Source: Candidatus Firestoneibacteriota bacterium (lineage in GTDB: Bacteria; Oederibacteriota; D2-FULL-39-29; JBBTED01). From it: 20,174 nt of DNA. A program made the position numbers and the translations under genes. Under the pieces are notes generated by a model. That model searched no databases and was not told where the DNA came from. It was given only the letters and a program-made list of their open reading frames with translations. Location: positions 1 through 20,174 of the forward strand of contig JBBTED010000079.1 in assembly GCA_038042445.1 (NCBI GenBank), read 5' to 3'. Positions 1,914 to 19,692 of this stretch are shown piece by piece (position 1 is the stretch's first letter; the number at the start of each line of letters is the position of its first letter).

Positions 1914-4900
1914 ATGAATATTTCAGAGATATCTATTCGTAATAATGTTTTTTCATGGATGCTAATGGCAGCCCTTCTTATTTTTGGAGGTATATGTTTT
2001 AATCGCTTAGGGATAAGCCAGCTTCCTGATGTTGATTTTCCTGTTGTCAGTATTAGTGTTAGTCTAAATGGTGCAACTCCTGATGTAATGGAGCTTGAAG
2101 TTGTTGAACCTATTGAAGATGCTCTTACTTCTGTGCAAGGTATAAAAAGTCTTTCATCTTCATCAAAAACAGGAAGCGCAAATATTTCAGTGGAGTTTGA
2201 TCTTGATAAAGATATAGATGTGGCAGTGCAGGAAATTCAAAGTGTTCTTAGCCGTATTCAAAGAAGTTTACCTTATGGAATTGAACCACCGTCTATACGA
2301 AAGTCTAATCCGGAAAACAGTCCTATTCTTTGGGTAAGTGTTAGCGCTGATAATATTTCCCAAACAGAGCTTATGAAACTTGTTCGGTATCAGATTCAGG
2401 ATCGTTTTTCGTCAGTTTCTGGTGTTGGTGAAGTTATGATTGGTGGTTTTGCTGAACCCAATTTAAGAGTTTGGCTCAATCAGGAGAAATTAAATAAATA
2501 TCAATTAACTGCATCAGATGTTATCAATACAATTCAACGCGAACATTCAGAACAACCAGGAGGCAGAATTGAAACAGGTAAGAAAGAAATTAATATACGT
2601 ACTTTAGGTGAGGCGCCTACAGTCAAAGATTTTGAAAATCTCACAATAAATAGACGTGGAGGTTCTCTAAATTATATACCTATACCTCTTAAAAATGTTG
2701 CTGTTATTGAAGAAGGAACTGAAGATATTAGAAGTATAAGTCGTGCACAGGGTAAAGCTACTATAGGTCTTGGAATCAGAAAACAGCCTAAAACTAATGC
2801 TGTTCAAGTTGCACATAATATCAAAGAGCGATTAAAAGAAGTGGCTGCTCGATTACCTAAGGGTGTTGATATAGCAGTACGTTTTGATGCAACACAGTTT
2901 ATTGAAGAATCAATACGTGAGCTTAATTTTACTCTGATTCTTTCTGCTGTTTTAACTGCATTAGTTTGTTGGCTTTTTCTTGGATCATGGACAGCAACAA
3001 TTAATGTAATTCTTGCAATTCCAACTTCAGTTGTGGGAAGTTTTATTGTGCTTTATGCTCTTGGTTTTACTCTTAATAGTTTTACACTCCTTGGTTTATC
3101 ACTTGCAATTGGTATTGTAGTTGATGATGCAATTATGGTTCTTGAAAACATTGTTCGTCATAAAGAAAAAGGGAAAGACAGAATGCTTGCTGCATTAGAT
3201 GGTTCACGCGAAATTACATTGGCAGCAATTGCCGCAACAGCTGCTATTATTGCAATATTTCTTCCTGTTGCTTTTATGGAAGGTGTAATAGGCAAATATT
3301 TTTTTCAATTCGGTGTTACACTTTCAGTAGCAGTGGCTCTTTCTTTACTTGAGGCTCTTACACTTACTCCTATGCGGTGCTCACGTTTTTTAAATGTGGA
3401 AAACAGAACTTCTTTTATTGGGAAAATGGTTGAAGGCGGGTTTGTTAAAAGCGCCAATTTATATCGGAAATTGATTCCCAAAACACTTAACCATCCTTAT
3501 GTTACTATTATTATTACCACAGTTTTTTTTGTGGCAACACTGTATATTGGGAAAATGTTGAAAAGGGAATTTGTTCCTTCACAGGATCAAAGTAGATTAA
3601 TGCTTAGTTTGAAAACTCCTGTTGGTTCATCACTTGATTTTACGGATGATAAATTGAAACAAGTGGAAAAATATCTTGCATCAAGACCAGAAGTAGACAA
3701 CTATTTCAGTAATGCTGGTGTTAATACGGGTTCGATATTCTTAAATTTAAAACCGCCGAAAGAAAGAAAGCTTAGTGCTCAAAATTTTGCAGGTGTAATA
3801 CGAAAAGATTTAGGCAAAATTCCAGATGTAAAAGTAATAATACAAGATCCATCTCTTTCAGGATTAACATCAAGAAGAGGATTCCCTATTGAATTTTCAA
3901 TCAGGGGACCTGAATGGAATAAATTGATAGAATTGTCTGGAAAAATGACTGATGAAATGGAAAAAACAGGTTTAATGTCTGATATTGATACTAATTATCA
4001 GGGCGGTATGCCGGAGATAGAAGTAATTCCAAATCGTATAAGAGCTCGTGAAAGAGGAATAGAAATTTCTGAAATTTCCCAAACAGTTAATGTAATGATG
4101 GCGAGTACTATTGTGGGAAAATATTCAGATGCAGGTAGACGTTTTGATATACGTGTGGGATTACCTTCAAAAGACCGAACATCAATGGAAACCATTAAGA
4201 CGCTCAAAGTAAGAAATAACAGGGGAGAACTTATTCCTCTTTCAGAAGTGGTGGAATTAAAGCAAAAAAATAGTCTTCAGTCTATTTCAAGAGAAGATAG
4301 GCAAAGGGCAATTAGTGTTTATGCAAACGTAACGCCAAATAGTTCACAAGCAGAGGCAATTGATGCTGTTCAAAAAATTTCGCGCAAGATACTTCCTTCT
4401 GGTTATTATACTGTTGCAAGTGGAAGTTCCAAAACATTCAATGAATCATTTCAAGGTCTTATTTTTGCATTTATTCTTGGAATTATTGTTGCTTATATGG
4501 TGTTGGCTTCGCAGTTTAACAGTTTTATAGACCCTTTTTCAATTCTTATTGCGCTTCCTTTTAGTATTTCAGGTGCATTTATTGCGCTTTATTTTACTGG
4601 GCAGACACTTAATGTTTATAGTATGATTGGATTGATTTTACTAATGGGTATTGTAAAGAAAAACTCTATTCTTCTTGTAGAGTTTACAAAACAAATGCGT
4701 GCTAAGGGAATGGGTGTCAGGGAAGCACTTATTGAAGCTTGTCCAATACGATTGCGTCCGATTCTTATGACTTCTATTGCAACAGTTGTAGCGGCAATTC
4801 CGCCTGCACTTGCTTTAGGGCCTGGAGCAGAAAGCAGAAAACCGATGGCTATAGCAGTTATTAGCGGAGTGATAGTTTCAACACTTCTAACCCTTTTTGT

Positions 4901-9052: not shown

Positions 9053-9106
9053 ATAGTCGCCTGCCTAGGCGGGCGTGAAATACCGCAGGCTAAAGCCTGC
9101 GACTAC
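9053..9106. repeat. GTAG-type REP doublet with a substituted left hairpin
   Basis: Right arm ACCGCAGGCTAAAGCCTGCGACTAC (9082-9106) is identical to 15240-15264. Left arm is ATAGTCGCCTGCCTAGGCGGGCG. Confidence 0.8.
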
Positions 9107-12078: not shown

Positions 12079-12162
12079 GTCATCCGCCTAGTCGGATTCA
12101 GAATCTTGTTTTGGCAGTATTTTAAAGACACTGGATTCCCGATTAAAGAATTCGGGAATGAC
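12079..12162. repeat. divergent TGACA-tailed palindromic doublet
   Basis: Left GTCATCCGCCTAGTCGGATTCAGAATCT and right GGATTCCCGATTAAAGAATTCGGGAATGAC, with TGTCA/TGACA termini. Confidence 0.65.
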
Positions 12163-12173
12163 AAAGAAACAAT

Positions 12174-13031: not shown

Positions 13032-13034
13032 GCT

Positions 13035-13090
13035 GTCATGCCGAACTTGTTTCGGCATCTCATTAGATCCTGAAACAAGTTCAGGATGAC
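13035..13090. repeat. TGACA-tailed palindromic repeat, inverted doublet
   Basis: GTCATGCCGAACTTGTTTCGGCATCTC (13035-13061) and AGATCCTGAAACAAGTTCAGGATGAC (13065-13090). Confidence 0.9.
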
Positions 13091-13115
13091 AAAAAGGTCA
13101 GTAGAAAATTTATTT

Positions 13116-15187: not shown

Positions 15188-15264
15188 GTAGTCGCAGGCT
15201 TTAGCCTGCGGTAAAAAACATAGACGTTTAGTTCGCAAGACCGCAGGCTAAAGCCTGCGACTAC
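15188..15264. repeat. GTAG-tagged REP doublet (REPIN-like)
   Basis: Perfect 25-bp inverted repeats GTAGTCGCAGGCTTTAGCCTGCGGT / ACCGCAGGCTAAAGCCTGCGACTAC around a 27-nt spacer. Confidence 0.9.
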
Positions 15265-15942: not shown

Positions 15943-15964
15943 AAAAATATATAGGTATTTAGTC

Positions 15965-16015
15965 GTAGGGGCGAGTTTGCTCGCCCGTTTATTGGGCGGA
16001 TAAATCCGCCCCTAC
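15965..16015. repeat. GTAG-tagged REP-like doublet
   Basis: GTAGGGGCGAGTTTGCTCGCCC-GTTTATT-GGGCGGATAAATCCGCCCCTAC; near-identical to 1825-1875. Confidence 0.9.
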
Positions 16016-16022
16016 GTCCTAT

Positions 16023-16117: not shown

Positions 16118-17059
16118 ATGAAAAAATTTGTAATAGTAATTTGTTGTATGGTTTTAGTGCCTGGTTTGTTTTTATTATCGGGTTGTGGGACAAGTACGTA
16201 TGTTAAAGGCGAAAGTCTTAGTTCGGATGCTCAGGCAAGTGATAAAAAAGAAGATGTGTTAGTTGGTCCTAAACGTAGAGTGGCAGTAGTTGATTTTGAA
16301 AATAAAACAATATACGGTAAACGTAGATTAGGTTCATCTGTTGCAGATATTCTTGTGACAGAGTTGAAAAAATCAGACCGTTTTATTTTAGTAGAGAGAG
16401 AAAAAATAAATAAAATACTTGAGGAACAAAAATTTCAATATACAGGTGCAGTTGCTGAATCTACTGTAGTTGAATTAGGTAAAATTCTTGGAGTAAGCGC
16501 TATGATTACTGGAAGTGTATCTCAATTTGGAGTTAAGACAGAAAGTGGTTCTGCAATAATTTCAGAGAGCAAAACACAAACTGCTCAGGCAGTAGTGGAT
16601 GTGCGAGTTGTTGATATAGCAACTGGTAAATTGCTGTATGCGGAATCTGCAAAGGGAACTGCTAAAAAAACATCATCTTCTTTTTTGGGTATAGGTGGAA
16701 GTTCCGGGTATGACGAAACTTTGGAAGGAGATGCATTGCGAGAATCAATAATTCAGCTTGTGAAAATAATTACATCAAAAATTGATTCAATTTCCTGGAA
16801 TTGCACTGTAGCAGAAATTATGGGGGACAAAATTTATCTTGATGCAGGCAAAGAATCAAATTTGCAAATAGGTTCTAAAGTTGATATTTTCAGAACTACT
16901 AAAGAAATAAAAGGTTCATCAGGTGAAGTAATTGGTAAATTGGAAGATAAGATATGCACATTAGAATTAGTAGAATATTTTGGAGAAAACGGTTCTATTG
17001 CGAAGTTAGTATCCGGTGAAGCTCCGCAAAACGGGGATATTTGCAGGGTTGCGAAGTAG
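16118..17059 (+). CDS. CsgG/HfaB-family lipoprotein with C-terminal extension
   Basis: Lipobox LSGC; 'RVAVVDFENK', 'RFILVERE..ILEEQ', 'GKILGV..ITGSVSQFG', 'VDVRVVDIATG'. RBS GAGGGGG. Confidence 0.8.
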   Translation: MKKFVIVICCMVLVPGLFLLSGCGTSTYVKGESLSSDAQASDKKEDVLVGPKRRVAVVDFENKTIYGKRRLGSSVADILVTELKKSDRFILVEREKINKILEEQKFQYTGAVAESTVVELGKILGVSAMITGSVSQFGVKTESGSAIISESKTQTAQAVVDVRVVDIATGKLLYAESAKGTAKKTSSSFLGIGGSSGYDETLEGDALRESIIQLVKIITSKIDSISWNCTVAEIMGDKIYLDAGKESNLQIGSKVDIFRTTKEIKGSSGEVIGKLEDKICTLELVEYFGENGSIAKLVSGEAPQNGDICRVAK

Positions 17060-17140
17060 AGATGCTGATGAGATGCTGATGAGATGCTGATGAGATGCTG
17101 ATGAGATGCTGATGAGATGCTGAAACGAGTTCAGCATGAC
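17059..17140 (+). repeat. 11-bp tandem array (GAGATGCTGAT)x5 running into a TGACA-tailed palindrome
   Basis: Units start at 17059, 17070, 17081, 17092 and 17103, followed by GAGATGCTGAAACGAGTTCAGCATGAC (17114-17140). Confidence 0.95.
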
Positions 17141-17149
17141 AATATAAAT

Positions 17150-17437
17150 ATGAATGGTCATTATTGTGTGTATATTCTTACAAATAAGTCTGATAGAGTT
17201 CTTTATATCGGAGTAACAAATAATCTTGAACGTAGAATGTTTGAACATAAAAATAAATTGATTGAAGGTTTTTCAAAAAGGTATAATCTTAACAAGCTTA
17301 TTTATTACGAAGTTACAAACGATGTAAGTGCTTCTATAAGTAGAGAAAAACAACTTAAAAATTGGCATAGGGATTGGAAAATAAATTTAATAAATCAATT
17401 TAATCCTAATTGGGAAGATTTAAGTGAAGAATTTTAA
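17150..17437 (+). CDS. stand-alone GIY-YIG nuclease family protein (95 aa)
   Basis: 'YCVYIL..VLYIGVTNNLERRMFEHK', 'FSKRYNLNKLIYYE', 'ISREKQLKNWHRDWKINLI..NPNWEDL'. Start moved from 17117 (inside the repeat) to 17150. Confidence 0.9.
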   Translation: MNGHYCVYILTNKSDRVLYIGVTNNLERRMFEHKNKLIEGFSKRYNLNKLIYYEVTNDVSASISREKQLKNWHRDWKINLINQFNPNWEDLSEEF

Positions 17438-17560
17438 GAGATCCTGAAACGAGTTCAGGATGACAAAAAAACAGAAAAGTTGTCACCCTGAACTTGTTTC
17501 AGGGTCTAAAAGAGATGCTGATGGGATGCTGATGGGATGCTGAAACGAGTTCAGCATGAC
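17438..17560. repeat. cluster of three TGACA-tailed palindromes plus a short 11-bp array
   Basis: 17438-17464 (+), 17482-17507 (-), 11-mers at 17512 and 17523, then 17534-17560 (+). Confidence 0.92.
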
Positions 17561-17566
17561 AAAACT

Positions 17567-19288
17567 ATGTTACGGGAAATACATATTAAAAACTTTGCTA
17601 TAATTGATGAGATTACTGTTGAATTTGCAGAAGGGTTAAATATATTTAGCGGTGAAACAGGTGCAGGCAAATCAATAATAATAGATGCTTTAAATCTTGT
17701 TTTGGGTGAACGTGGTTTTACTGAACAGATTCGCACGGGTGCTGATGCTTCTGTAATAGAAGCGATATTTGATGTAGAGGCAGGTCGCGACCTGCTTCTA
17801 CGGAATAAAGGTATAGATATTGATGATAGTAACATTCTCATTTTAAAGCGTGAATTAAATAAATCAGGAAAAAATAAATGTTATATAAATAGTAGCCCTG
17901 TTCCATTAAATACACTCTATGAAATAGGTGTCCAACTTGTAGATATTCATGGCCAGCATGAACACCAGGCACTCTTGAAGTCTGAAACCCATATAGAATT
18001 TCTTGATAATTTTGCCGTATTAACCAATAAAGTAACAGAAATAAAAGAATTATTTTTGAAATTAAACACACTTAAGACAAAAAAAGAGAATTTAACAATT
18101 GATGAGCATGAAAAAACAAGAAAAATAGATTTATTATCATTTCAGATAAATGAGATAGAAGATGCTAATTTAAAAGCTGGGGAAGAAGAGGAGCTTAAAA
18201 GCGAAAAAACAATTCTTATGAATGCACAAAAGATTTTTAATCTTGCAGATGAGTCTTATTCTAAATTAAAAGGCGAAGGTGTAAATGTATTAAATGAAAC
18301 AAATAAAATTATAAATATATTAAAAGAAATTTCTGCGATGGATGCAAAAATTTCTTCTTGCGTTGATGTGTGTGAAAAAGCAAAAGCAGATTTAGATGAA
18401 GTGGGGTATTTTTTGCGCGAATATAAAACTAAAATAATAGCTGATGATAAACGCCTTGAAGAGGTAGAGGACAGATTGGATTTGGTTGGTAAACTTAAGC
18501 GAAAGTATGGGGATAATTTTGATGCAATATTGGTATATAAAGAAAAAATAAAGGAAGAATTAAACTCTATTATTAAGTCAGATGAGGAAATAAAAAAAAT
18601 AGATGAAGAAATAATAAAAGGACAGGGAGAACTTGTTAAGCTATCACTTGAAGTGTCAAAGATGCGTGAAAAAGCAAGTAAGTCTTTGCAGGAAAAAGTT
18701 GTAGCGGAATTGAAAAATCTAGGTATGGAGAATATAAATTTTAGTGTTTGTATTTCGCATATAGAGGAAAACAATCCCCCTATCCCCCCTTGTCAGGGGG
18801 GGGATAAGTACAAAGTTTTTGAAAATGGGATGGATATAGTGGAATTTTTAATTTCTCCAAATCCAGGCGAGGAATTAAAACCGTTATCTAAAATTGCATC
18901 TGGTGGTGAAATATCAAGGGTAATGCTTGCTTTAAAAGTGGTTTTGGCAAAAGTTGATAAAGTGCCTGTAATGGTTTTTGATGAAGTTGATTCTGGAATT
19001 GGCGGTAGAATTGCAGAAGCTGTCGGCAAAAAATTAAAAGTTGTGAGTAAAAATTATCAGGTTATATGTATTACACATTTACATCAGATTGCAGGTTTTG
19101 CAGATATACATTTTAAAGTATGGAAAGAAACAAGCAACAAAAGAACAAAAGTGTTAGCAGAGAAACTTGATAATAAAGGGCAAGTGGAAGAATTAGCGCG
19201 TATGATTGCAGGAGAAAAAATAACTGATAGTGCAATCAAACATGCCCAGGAACTACTTTATTCCTGCAGAGTCAAACAAACTAAGTAA
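17567..19288 (+). CDS. recN: DNA repair protein RecN
   Basis: IKNFAII, Walker A GETGAGKS, DIHGQHEHQ, long coiled coil, VEFLISPNPGE, IASGGEISRVML, FDEVDSG, ICITHLHQIA, ELARM. Start moved from 17537 to ATG 17567. Confidence 0.96.
   Translation: MLREIHIKNFAIIDEITVEFAEGLNIFSGETGAGKSIIIDALNLVLGERGFTEQIRTGADASVIEAIFDVEAGRDLLLRNKGIDIDDSNILILKRELNKSGKNKCYINSSPVPLNTLYEIGVQLVDIHGQHEHQALLKSETHIEFLDNFAVLTNKVTEIKELFLKLNTLKTKKENLTIDEHEKTRKIDLLSFQINEIEDANLKAGEEEELKSEKTILMNAQKIFNLADESYSKLKGEGVNVLNETNKIINILKEISAMDAKISSCVDVCEKAKADLDEVGYFLREYKTKIIADDKRLEEVEDRLDLVGKLKRKYGDNFDAILVYKEKIKEELNSIIKSDEEIKKIDEEIIKGQGELVKLSLEVSKMREKASKSLQEKVVAELKNLGMENINFSVCISHIEENNPPIPPCQGGDKYKVFENGMDIVEFLISPNPGEELKPLSKIASGGEISRVMLALKVVLAKVDKVPVMVFDEVDSGIGGRIAEAVGKKLKVVSKNYQVICITHLHQIAGFADIHFKVWKETSNKRTKVLAEKLDNKGQVEELARMIAGEKITDSAIKHAQELLYSCRVKQTK
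17774..17801. repeat. GTAG-tagged palindrome inside the recN coding sequence
   Basis: GTAGAGGCAGGTCG|CGACCTGCTTCTAC (one G:T pair); same length, ends and GGTCGCGACC core as 14426-14453. Confidence 0.75.
18773..18806. repeat. C-run/G-run hairpin repeat inside the recN coding sequence
   Basis: AATCCCCCTATCCCCCCTTGTCAGGGGGGGGATA, similar to the intergenic copy at 19965-19997. Confidence 0.75.
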
Positions 19289-19534: not shown

Positions 19535-19575
19535 ATTTATTTATCCTCCTTTGCTTTCTTCAATAACCTATTTTT

Positions 19576-19641
19576 GTCATGCTGAATTTATTTCAGCATC
19601 TAATAAAATTATTTGAGATCCTGAAACGAGTTCAGGATGAC
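19576..19641. repeat. TGACA-tailed palindromic repeat, inverted doublet
   Basis: GTCATGCTGAATTTATTTCAGCATCT (19576-19601) and GAGATCCTGAAACGAGTTCAGGATGAC (19615-19641, identical to 17438-17464). Confidence 0.9.
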
Positions 19642-19692
19642 ACTCTTCCTTTAATTCCCTTATGTGTCATTGATAAAGGGGTGGGGAGATTT

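Follow-up and report, generated by a model that had tools for sequence, protein, structure and literature searches.

Is the very small GIY-YIG nuclease encoded on contig JBBTED010000079.1 of a Candidatus Firestoneibacteriota bacterium the enzyme of the hairpin repeats that crowd around its gene, and, if so, do the two make up a new kind of system? The 20,174-nucleotide stretch analysed here (the window, below) is one complete contig of a draft genome of 2.81 Mb, 31.9% G+C and 181 contigs. A first-pass annotation made from the letters of the sequence had placed a 95-amino-acid (aa) GIY-YIG gene among four copies of one palindromic repeat, and had proposed that the nuclease recognises or cuts the hairpins and spreads or maintains them, by analogy with repetitive extragenic palindromic sequences (REPs) and their REP-associated tyrosine transposases (RAYTs). 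Homology, conserved catalytic residues, hairpin architecture, about 250 mostly extragenic repeat copies and a co-location that spans phyla lead us to conclude that the protein (P0001, the product of the gene called ssn below) is very probably an Ssn-family nuclease (cd10448) and the repeats its cognate SRM, of the CGTC/TGTC-tagged REP class. The pairing of nuclease and hairpin at this locus is of a kind already published (PMC11893778), and the repeat class was catalogued in 2013 (PMC3733652).

The nuclease gene and its four hairpins

P0001 matches the Pfam GIY-YIG family PF01541 (E 1.4e-17, residues 5-79) and no other Pfam family; an NCBIfam search with it returned only sub-threshold GIY-YIG-type matches, and a PDB search returned no relative at E <= 0.01. 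The gene does lie between two unrelated genes, as first annotated: a CsgG-family gene (16118-17059) is on one side and recN is on the other, the true start of recN likely being the ATG at 17568 rather than the listed open reading frame start at 17537. The gene and the repeat copies around it are the following:

17150-17437, + strand: ssn-like gene (P0001), single-domain GIY-YIG nuclease of 95 aa (open reading frame and Pfam)
17111-17143, - strand: repeat copy 1 (tag TGTCAT, with ATCTC after the stem-loop), core 17116-17141; covariance model 33.2 bits, E 1.4e-6; single-stranded DNA fold -6.7 kcal/mol, z -5.35
17435-17467, - strand: repeat copy 2, overlapping the ssn stop codon in the usual downstream orientation, core 17440-17465; covariance model 36.4 bits, E 2.2e-7; fold -6.1 kcal/mol, z -5.1
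17479-17511, + strand: repeat copy 3 (tag TGTCAC, GACCC-type stem), core 17481-17506; covariance model 35.0 bits; fold -7.1 kcal/mol, z -3.03
17531-17563, - strand: repeat copy 4, core 17536-17561; covariance model 34.1 bits; fold -6.7 kcal/mol, z -4.77

On its sense strand the repeat consists of a TGTCAT tag, an 8-bp stem that opens with AT, a 5-nucleotide (nt) loop, the returning stem and ATC. The first-pass coordinates of the four copies were right to 1-3 nt, and all four are no more than 130 nt from the gene, one upstream and three downstream. As single-stranded DNA each forms the 8-bp stem and 5-nt loop (-6.1 to -7.1 kcal/mol, z -3.0 to -5.4), and the covariance model gives the four copies with their flanks 33-36 bits (E about 1e-6 to 2e-7). 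The tag end of copy 1 points to ssn, 9 nt before the start codon; copies 3 and 4 form a doublet with tags outward, and the core of copy 4 stops 6 nt short of the likely recN start. Copies 2 and 3 (17438-17507) stand tag-to-tag, an arrangement seen in only 2 of 80 adjacent pairs genome-wide, and as single-stranded DNA they could form a joint long hairpin with 27 paired bases; the stretch 17435-17566 folds at -30.3 kcal/mol (z -7.9).

Relationship to the Ssn nucleases

Ssn proteins, described by Chenal et al. (Nat Commun 2025, March 2025; PMC11893778), are GIY-YIG nucleases of ~94 aa (CDD cd10448), and repeats of the form "CGTCAT + hairpin", called NTS or SRM (Ssn-related motifs), stand on the flanks of their genes. 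According to that paper, N. meningitidis SsnA, a 94-aa single-domain GIY-YIG protein, binds CGTCATTCCCGCGMAVGCGGGAATCYRG solely as single-stranded DNA and on one strand only, does not bind the RNA form of the repeat, and cleaves a few nucleotides upstream of the repeat; cleavage is governed by the unpaired, oriented tag and is abolished by mutation of Y6, Y17 or E64. Cleavage at the cognate repeat was shown for four homologues, those of N. meningitidis, N. elongata, N. wadsworthii and Wolbachia, and 71% of the homologue loci carry repeats, 42% of the loci doing so on both sides (PMC11893778). The sole role demonstrated there is the one in Neisseria, where the enzyme cuts incoming single-stranded DNA and lowers transformation by repeat-bearing DNA.

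P0001 has the size and architecture of this family (95 aa, a GIY-YIG domain alone), and its gene has hairpin repeats on both sides. Y8, Y19, R29, E32, H33 and E66 of P0001 are invariant in a 13-sequence alignment (A1), and from a constant offset of 2 we infer that Y8, Y19 and E66 would correspond to SsnA Y6, Y17 and E64. P0001 is 53-62% identical to genes in five species that are scored YES for an ssnA homologue and cd10448 in Supplementary Data 4 of PMC11893778. The likeness to the Ssn/SRM pairs takes in the length and single domain of the protein, its two conserved Tyr and its conserved Glu, the gene between oriented 'YGTCAT + hairpin + ATC' repeats, which share the layout of NTS (CGTCATTCCCGCGMAVGCGGGAATCYRG), and the hundreds of mostly extragenic copies in the genome. 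The differences are that the copies at the locus have a CTGAA-type stem and 5-nt loop which the published SRM pattern does not match, that the upstream copy points the opposite way from what is usual, that two of the locus copies carry half-hairpin arrays (below), and that the host is an uncultivated lineage.

The repeats also fit an older description. Di Nocera, De Gregorio and Rocco (BMC Genomics 2013; PMC3733652) described CGTC/TGTC-tagged REPs "lacking a dedicated transposase", with 8-9-bp stems opening A-T, T-A and 4-5-nt loops, mostly in inverted dimers; the superfamily takes in Neisseria dRS3 and Rickettsia RPE-4/6, is found mainly in Alphaproteobacteria, and has no associated enzyme named in that paper, which also reports that no transposase flanked by CGTC-type repeats was found. 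The window repeats share the terminal CGTC/TGTC tag, the 8-bp stem with A-T and T-A start, the 5-nt loop, the inverted dimers and the lack of a flanked transposase. As to the tails, the CTGAA-type copies of the window end in CTC, CTA or CCC and not in the CGTC-REP consensus CCA, and the ATTCCCGC-type copies of the genome (below) end in CCAG or CCAT.

Repeats that overlap the ssn stop codon and stand just before the ssn start codon and the likely recN start might instead act mainly at the level of RNA or transcription, as terminators, mRNA stabilisers or operators of the genes beside them, and be used by the nuclease gene for its own regulation; RNA-level roles have been proposed for REPs (PMC3733652). 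The stems, however, have no T-run behind them and a terminator scan called none of them, which leaves the terminator reading unsupported by that scan; moreover, SsnA does not bind the RNA form of its repeat, and the conserved, unpaired and oriented TGTCAT tag is a determinant of cleavage in the experiments reported (PMC11893778). We consider a mainly RNA-level function very unlikely.

The repeat in the window and in the genome

Beyond the four copies at ssn the window holds five further full copies, two doublets and one copy with a second type of stem, and these together with their partial relatives are:

13032-13093, 13032-13064 on the + strand and 13061-13093 on the - strand: gene-less tags-outward doublet between tyrA-like and aroA genes (Pfam); covariance model 34.8 and 39.0 bits
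19573-19644, 19573-19605 on the + strand and 19612-19644 on the - strand: gene-less tags-outward doublet between zapA-like and zapB-like genes (Pfam); covariance model 33.8 and 33.6 bits
12079-12165: second-type doublet, a ATTCCCGA-stem copy with CCAG tail at 12129-12165 on the - strand (33.1 bits) and its degenerate partner at about 12079-12107 on the + strand
1796-1809, - strand: half copy (3' arm and tag, GCGGGAATGACA) beside an unrelated GTAG-type repeat, read from the sequence and without a covariance match at E <= 1

The inverted doublets first placed near 13035-13090 and 19576-19641 are thus both real. The looser relatives that had also been listed were seen correctly in part: 12129-12165 is a full copy of the second type, while its partner is degenerate and 1796-1809 is a half copy.

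A finder that requires the tag and then a perfect stem of at least 7 bp (imperfect stems are not accepted) counts 262 copies in the genome, ~166 of the CTGAA type, ~87 ATTCCCGC-like with a CCAG tail and 9 apparently unrelated; the split between the first two types is approximate, since the class rule mislabels a few. Fuzzy matching to one consensus with up to 4 mismatches gives 122-147 copies depending on settings. The CTGAA-type stems occur as compensating variants (GATCC, GATGC, GACCC and GATGCC). Although long open frames make up 89% of the genome, 212 of the 253 related copies are outside such frames. The genome-wide count for which the first-pass annotation had called comes to about 250, mostly extragenic. 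A cluster of 4 copies within 500 nt occurs at just two sites of the 2.81-Mb genome, one of them the ssn locus, which rules out chance as the explanation of the clustering there.

Flanks of homologous genes

The association was followed in 80 homologous loci from many phyla, taken from one genome per species and encoding proteins 51-72% identical to P0001. At least one tagged perfect hairpin is present within 330 nt of the gene at 38 of the 80 loci, and on both sides at 29. Counted by length of DNA, there are 93 tagged hairpins in the 52.5 kb within 330 nt of the genes, 10 in the 176.9 kb further out and none inside the genes, a near-to-far density ratio of 31-fold; the enrichment at the flanks of homologues that the first-pass annotation had suggested looking for is therefore present. 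As a rule, the upstream copy has its tag pointing away from the gene and stands 32-133 nt before the start of the match, and an inverted downstream copy stands 3-57 nt after the match. The closest homologue (72% identical) is in an Atrimonadaceae genome, from a different phylum, and has the same CTGAA-type hairpins; homologues with CTGAA-stem or other variants at their flanks occur in Atribacterota-like, candidate-phyla-radiation (Parcubacteria, Roizmanbacteria), alphaproteobacterial and flavobacterial genomes. An alignment of 79 copies, taken from the window and from 42 other loci, has invariant GTCA and ATC and variable stems: GTC is present in all 79, mostly after T or C, the first stem pair is A-T in 79/79 and the second T-A in 75/79.

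In a tree of 90 proteins (94 columns; two rows with stops dropped and one duplicate-stretch locus omitted), in which 56 of 87 branches have less than 80% support, the flanked genes fall essentially into a single clade (42 rows, support 88) to which P0001 belongs. Changes between the flanked and the unflanked state number 4 on this tree and average 30 over 200 label shuffles, a comparison that overstates independence since kin share labels. At 20 of 49 'unflanked' loci the best inverted flank-to-flank match has a GTCAY tag followed by an imperfect palindrome.

The published SRM pattern, HGTCWYN(0-2)YYVSBRHN(0-5)WNVSBRGN(0-2)RNCYNB (PMC11893778), has 46 matches elsewhere in the genome, most of which read TGTCATTCCCGCGAAAGCGGGAATCCAG, as against 0-3 in 10 simulated genomes. 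It matches within 1.5 kb at 12 of the 80 homologous loci, whereas tagged perfect hairpins are within 330 nt at 38; the pattern is evidently narrower than the repeat class, and a search device rather than a defining property. At 11 of the 12 loci, whose genes are 52-65% identical to P0001, the matching repeats are within 330 nt, and at the twelfth the match is further out. Winogradskyella eximia has 0 SRMs in the table of the Ssn paper, yet a tagged hairpin is present 39 nt downstream of its homologue.

Several observations weigh against the Ssn assignment of this locus or narrow what can be drawn from the comparisons. The published SRM pattern has no match on the window contig. The membership of P0001 in cd10448 would rest on indirect links, through third-party homologues. 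The upstream copy at ssn has its tag towards the gene and is 9 nt from it, whereas about 27 of the 32 upstream-nearest copies elsewhere have the tag away at 32-133 nt. An altered palindrome that kept the hairpin abolished N. meningitidis SsnA activity (PMC11893778). The 100% stem pairing of the aligned copies arises by construction, perfect stems having been selected. Finally, with at most 150 candidates scored per genome, so that counts are lower bounds, 11 of 41 genomes (this one and 40 relatives) have at least 5 matches to the hairpin model; 8 of these 11 have a strong homologue (E <= 1e-20) as against 4 of the 30 genomes with fewer than 5 matches, which speaks for the pairing, but three hairpin-rich relatives, G038 (80 matches), G018 (36) and G022 (9), have none with P0001 as the query.

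These last genomes could also be cited for a purely incidental co-location, in which ordinary REPs, spread by a Y1 transposase or by no enzyme, and a GIY-YIG protein of unrelated role both gather in intergenic DNA. Five Y1_Tnp (IS200/RAYT-type) matches and several further families of hairpin repeats are present in the genome, and, of its GIY-YIG set of four small genes and uvrC, the three small genes other than ssn have no perfect tagged hairpin closer than 6 kb. However, no tagged hairpin was found within 1.2 kb of any of the five Y1_Tnp loci, two of which have other hairpin families of their own on their flanks; PMC3733652 reports no transposase between CGTC-type repeats; four homologues cut their own repeats (PMC11893778); and a 31-fold enrichment in many phyla, at fixed position and orientation, is unlike intergenic clutter. 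At the level of the family incidental co-location looks refuted, and for this locus we give it next to no credence. A RAYT as the enzyme of the tagged hairpins was likewise rejected, on the same 0/5 count.

The Ssn assignment is related to, and distinct from, the RAYT/REPIN systems. Both have short extragenic hairpins that bear an unpaired tag and are often arranged as inverted doublets, one small nuclease gene among the repeats, and an enzyme that acts on the single-stranded hairpin form (for Ssn, as shown in homologues). The differences are the GIY-YIG fold at ssn in place of HUH/Y1 (Y1_Tnp), the tag TGTCAT in place of GTAG (the GTAG-tagged hairpins of the window are separate families), and the location of the genome's own Y1 genes among other hairpin families. 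The locus is therefore not a REPtron in the strict sense, as it has no HUH/Y1 transposase, and the five Y1_Tnp matches elsewhere are without tagged hairpins within 1.2 kb. The core of the first proposal, that the nuclease recognises or cuts tagged hairpins, agrees with the experiments on the four homologues (PMC11893778) and with the flank statistics of the 80 loci.

Half-hairpin arrays and the question of mobility

Two tandem arrays built from arms of the hairpin adjoin the outer copies at ssn (scores from Tandem Repeats Finder, TRF):

17059-17123, no strand assigned: 11-bp tandem array, GAGATGCTGAT x 5.9, an iterated hairpin arm running into copy 1; TRF score 130, 100% matches
17514-17543, no strand assigned: 11-bp tandem array, GATGCTGATGG x 2.7, an iterated half-hairpin running into copy 4; TRF score 60

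Each array with its adjoining hairpin makes up one unit of a 51-nt direct repeat (17092-17142 and 17512-17562, 96% identical), and the two units bracket ssn and two hairpins. These are the only arrays built from hairpin arms among the 658 tandem arrays of the genome, and the only places among its 262 hairpins with at least 3 extra arm copies alongside. Comparable arrays accompany the hairpins upstream and downstream of the closest homologue, in Atrimonadaceae (locus L031, about 1230-1305 and 1800-1893), with four to five arm units in which GATCC and GACCC types alternate at a period of 16-17 nt, and a GC-rich Propionicimonas locus has tag-plus-arm arrays. No mention of half-hairpin arrays was found in the available text of the Ssn paper (PMC11893778). 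Iterated half-hairpins offer a tagged arm several alternative pairing partners, and the arrays could therefore serve the nuclease as a decoy or as a site of autoregulation, or could be scars left by successive rounds of Ssn cleavage and repair.

The arrays also bear on whether ssn and its hairpins form a mobile cassette, with the gene-less doublets as non-autonomous derivatives copied or moved through Ssn cleavage. Such mobility would add to the Ssn assignment and is compatible with it; the same idea is raised as a hypothesis in the Discussion of PMC11893778, where the gene-between-repeats layout is likened to IS200/RAYT-REP systems. The gene-less doublets share the tags-outward layout of the gene-bearing cassettes, as do 75 of the 80 adjacent pairs in the genome; the 72%-identical homologue with the same CTGAA-type hairpins belongs to a different phylum; and ssn with two hairpins is enclosed by the 51-nt direct repeats. 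The csgG-ssn-recN layout is particular to this genome among those compared: CsgG orthologues at 46-50% identity in class-level relatives (6 loci, 5 with downstream sequence) have neither recN nor a nuclease gene downstream in any case, and the same is true of all 29 metagenome CsgG loci (up to 50% identity). Synteny around csgG is, however, gone at the distance of the nearest relatives compared, so that an empty site cannot be defined, and no orthologous empty site was found. Furthermore, transposition or copying is not known for any Ssn, and neither strand transfer nor ligation is an evident activity of a nuclease of 95 aa. The co-variation of repeat and nuclease that had been proposed as a check is weak: stem type follows the nuclease tree loosely, with 6 changes against a shuffled mean of 9.3 (minimum 7) on a poorly resolved tree.

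On this evidence we regard the hypothesis that the nuclease spreads its repeats, and with it the mobile cassette, as possible but doubtful. That the cassette at this locus is in particular a mobile or recombining unit with specialised gene-proximal hairpins appears unlikely; the 51-nt direct repeats would, under the mobile-cassette explanation, mark integration or duplication through hairpin-to-hairpin recombination, which, if true, would be a route for such cassettes to move without a transposase.

Other repeat families of the window and genome

A second small GIY-YIG gene of the genome, the Ssn-like paralogue on contig C63 (19765-20040, locus L008), encodes a protein 54% identical to P0001 and has an imperfect TGTCAT-tagged element on both flanks:

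Contig C63, 19598-19640, 19700-19736 and 20054-20090: imperfect TGTCAT-tagged element TGTCATGCTGAGTRTCAACGAAGCATCTC

The element has additional copies on several more contigs, and the C63 paralogue also has the tag-proximal upstream arrangement seen at ssn; TGTCATGCTGAGTRTCAACGAAGCATCTC may be a third repeat class with its own paired nuclease.

Hairpin families with other tags are present as well. A GTAG-tagged double-hairpin family (GTAGGGGYGAGTTTRCTCGCCC ... GGGCGGATAAATCCGCCCCTAC) has window copies at 1743-1795, 1825-1876 and 15964-16016, and a relative of it adjoins another small GIY-YIG gene, on contig C21 at about 3455-3528. A third hairpin repeat, GTAGTCGCAGGCTTTAGCCTGCGGT, is also GTAG-tagged and has perfectly complementary copies at 9081-9106, 15188-15213 and 15240-15264, among them an inverted pair 27 nt apart after an acyltransferase gene. 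The two Y1_Tnp (RAYT/IS200-like) genes with hairpins of their own are on contigs C59 (5177-5930) and C74 (19653-20036), the hairpins being GTCAGGCA-NNN-TGCCTGAC and GTAGGGAAYGGTCGCGACC..., respectively, and these two loci are candidates for true REPtrons of the same genome. On contig C91 (912-1005) a 33-nt unit, GTTTCAATCCACGCTCCCGCGCGGGGAGACACA, in 2.8 tandem copies looks like a CRISPR-type repeat.

Proposed action and meaning

By analogy with SsnA, P0001 would bind the hairpin with its 5' TGTCAT tag only in single-stranded DNA, would read one strand at each copy (the - strand except at copy 3, where it would be the + strand), and would then cut a few nucleotides 5' of the tag. Since the sense strand of copy 1 is the - strand, the cut there would fall within the 8 nt at 17142-17149, between the tag and the ssn start codon. 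In the cell the protein might restrict single-stranded DNA that enters or becomes exposed, as in Neisseria, or might be part of a selfish cassette.

The locus extends the Ssn/SRM pairing to another uncultivated lineage and does not represent a new kind of system. Specific to it are the CTGAA-stem variant that the published pattern misses, the atypical orientation of the upstream copy, and half-hairpin arrays that are unique in the genome. For the family, the finding means that counts made with the published SRM pattern fall short of the whole repeat class. This genome has two classes of hairpin alongside two Ssn-like paralogues and offers a natural pair with which to study how very small enzymes read the sequence of a stem; such reading matters for the proposed use of Ssn enzymes as programmable single-strand DNA cutters.

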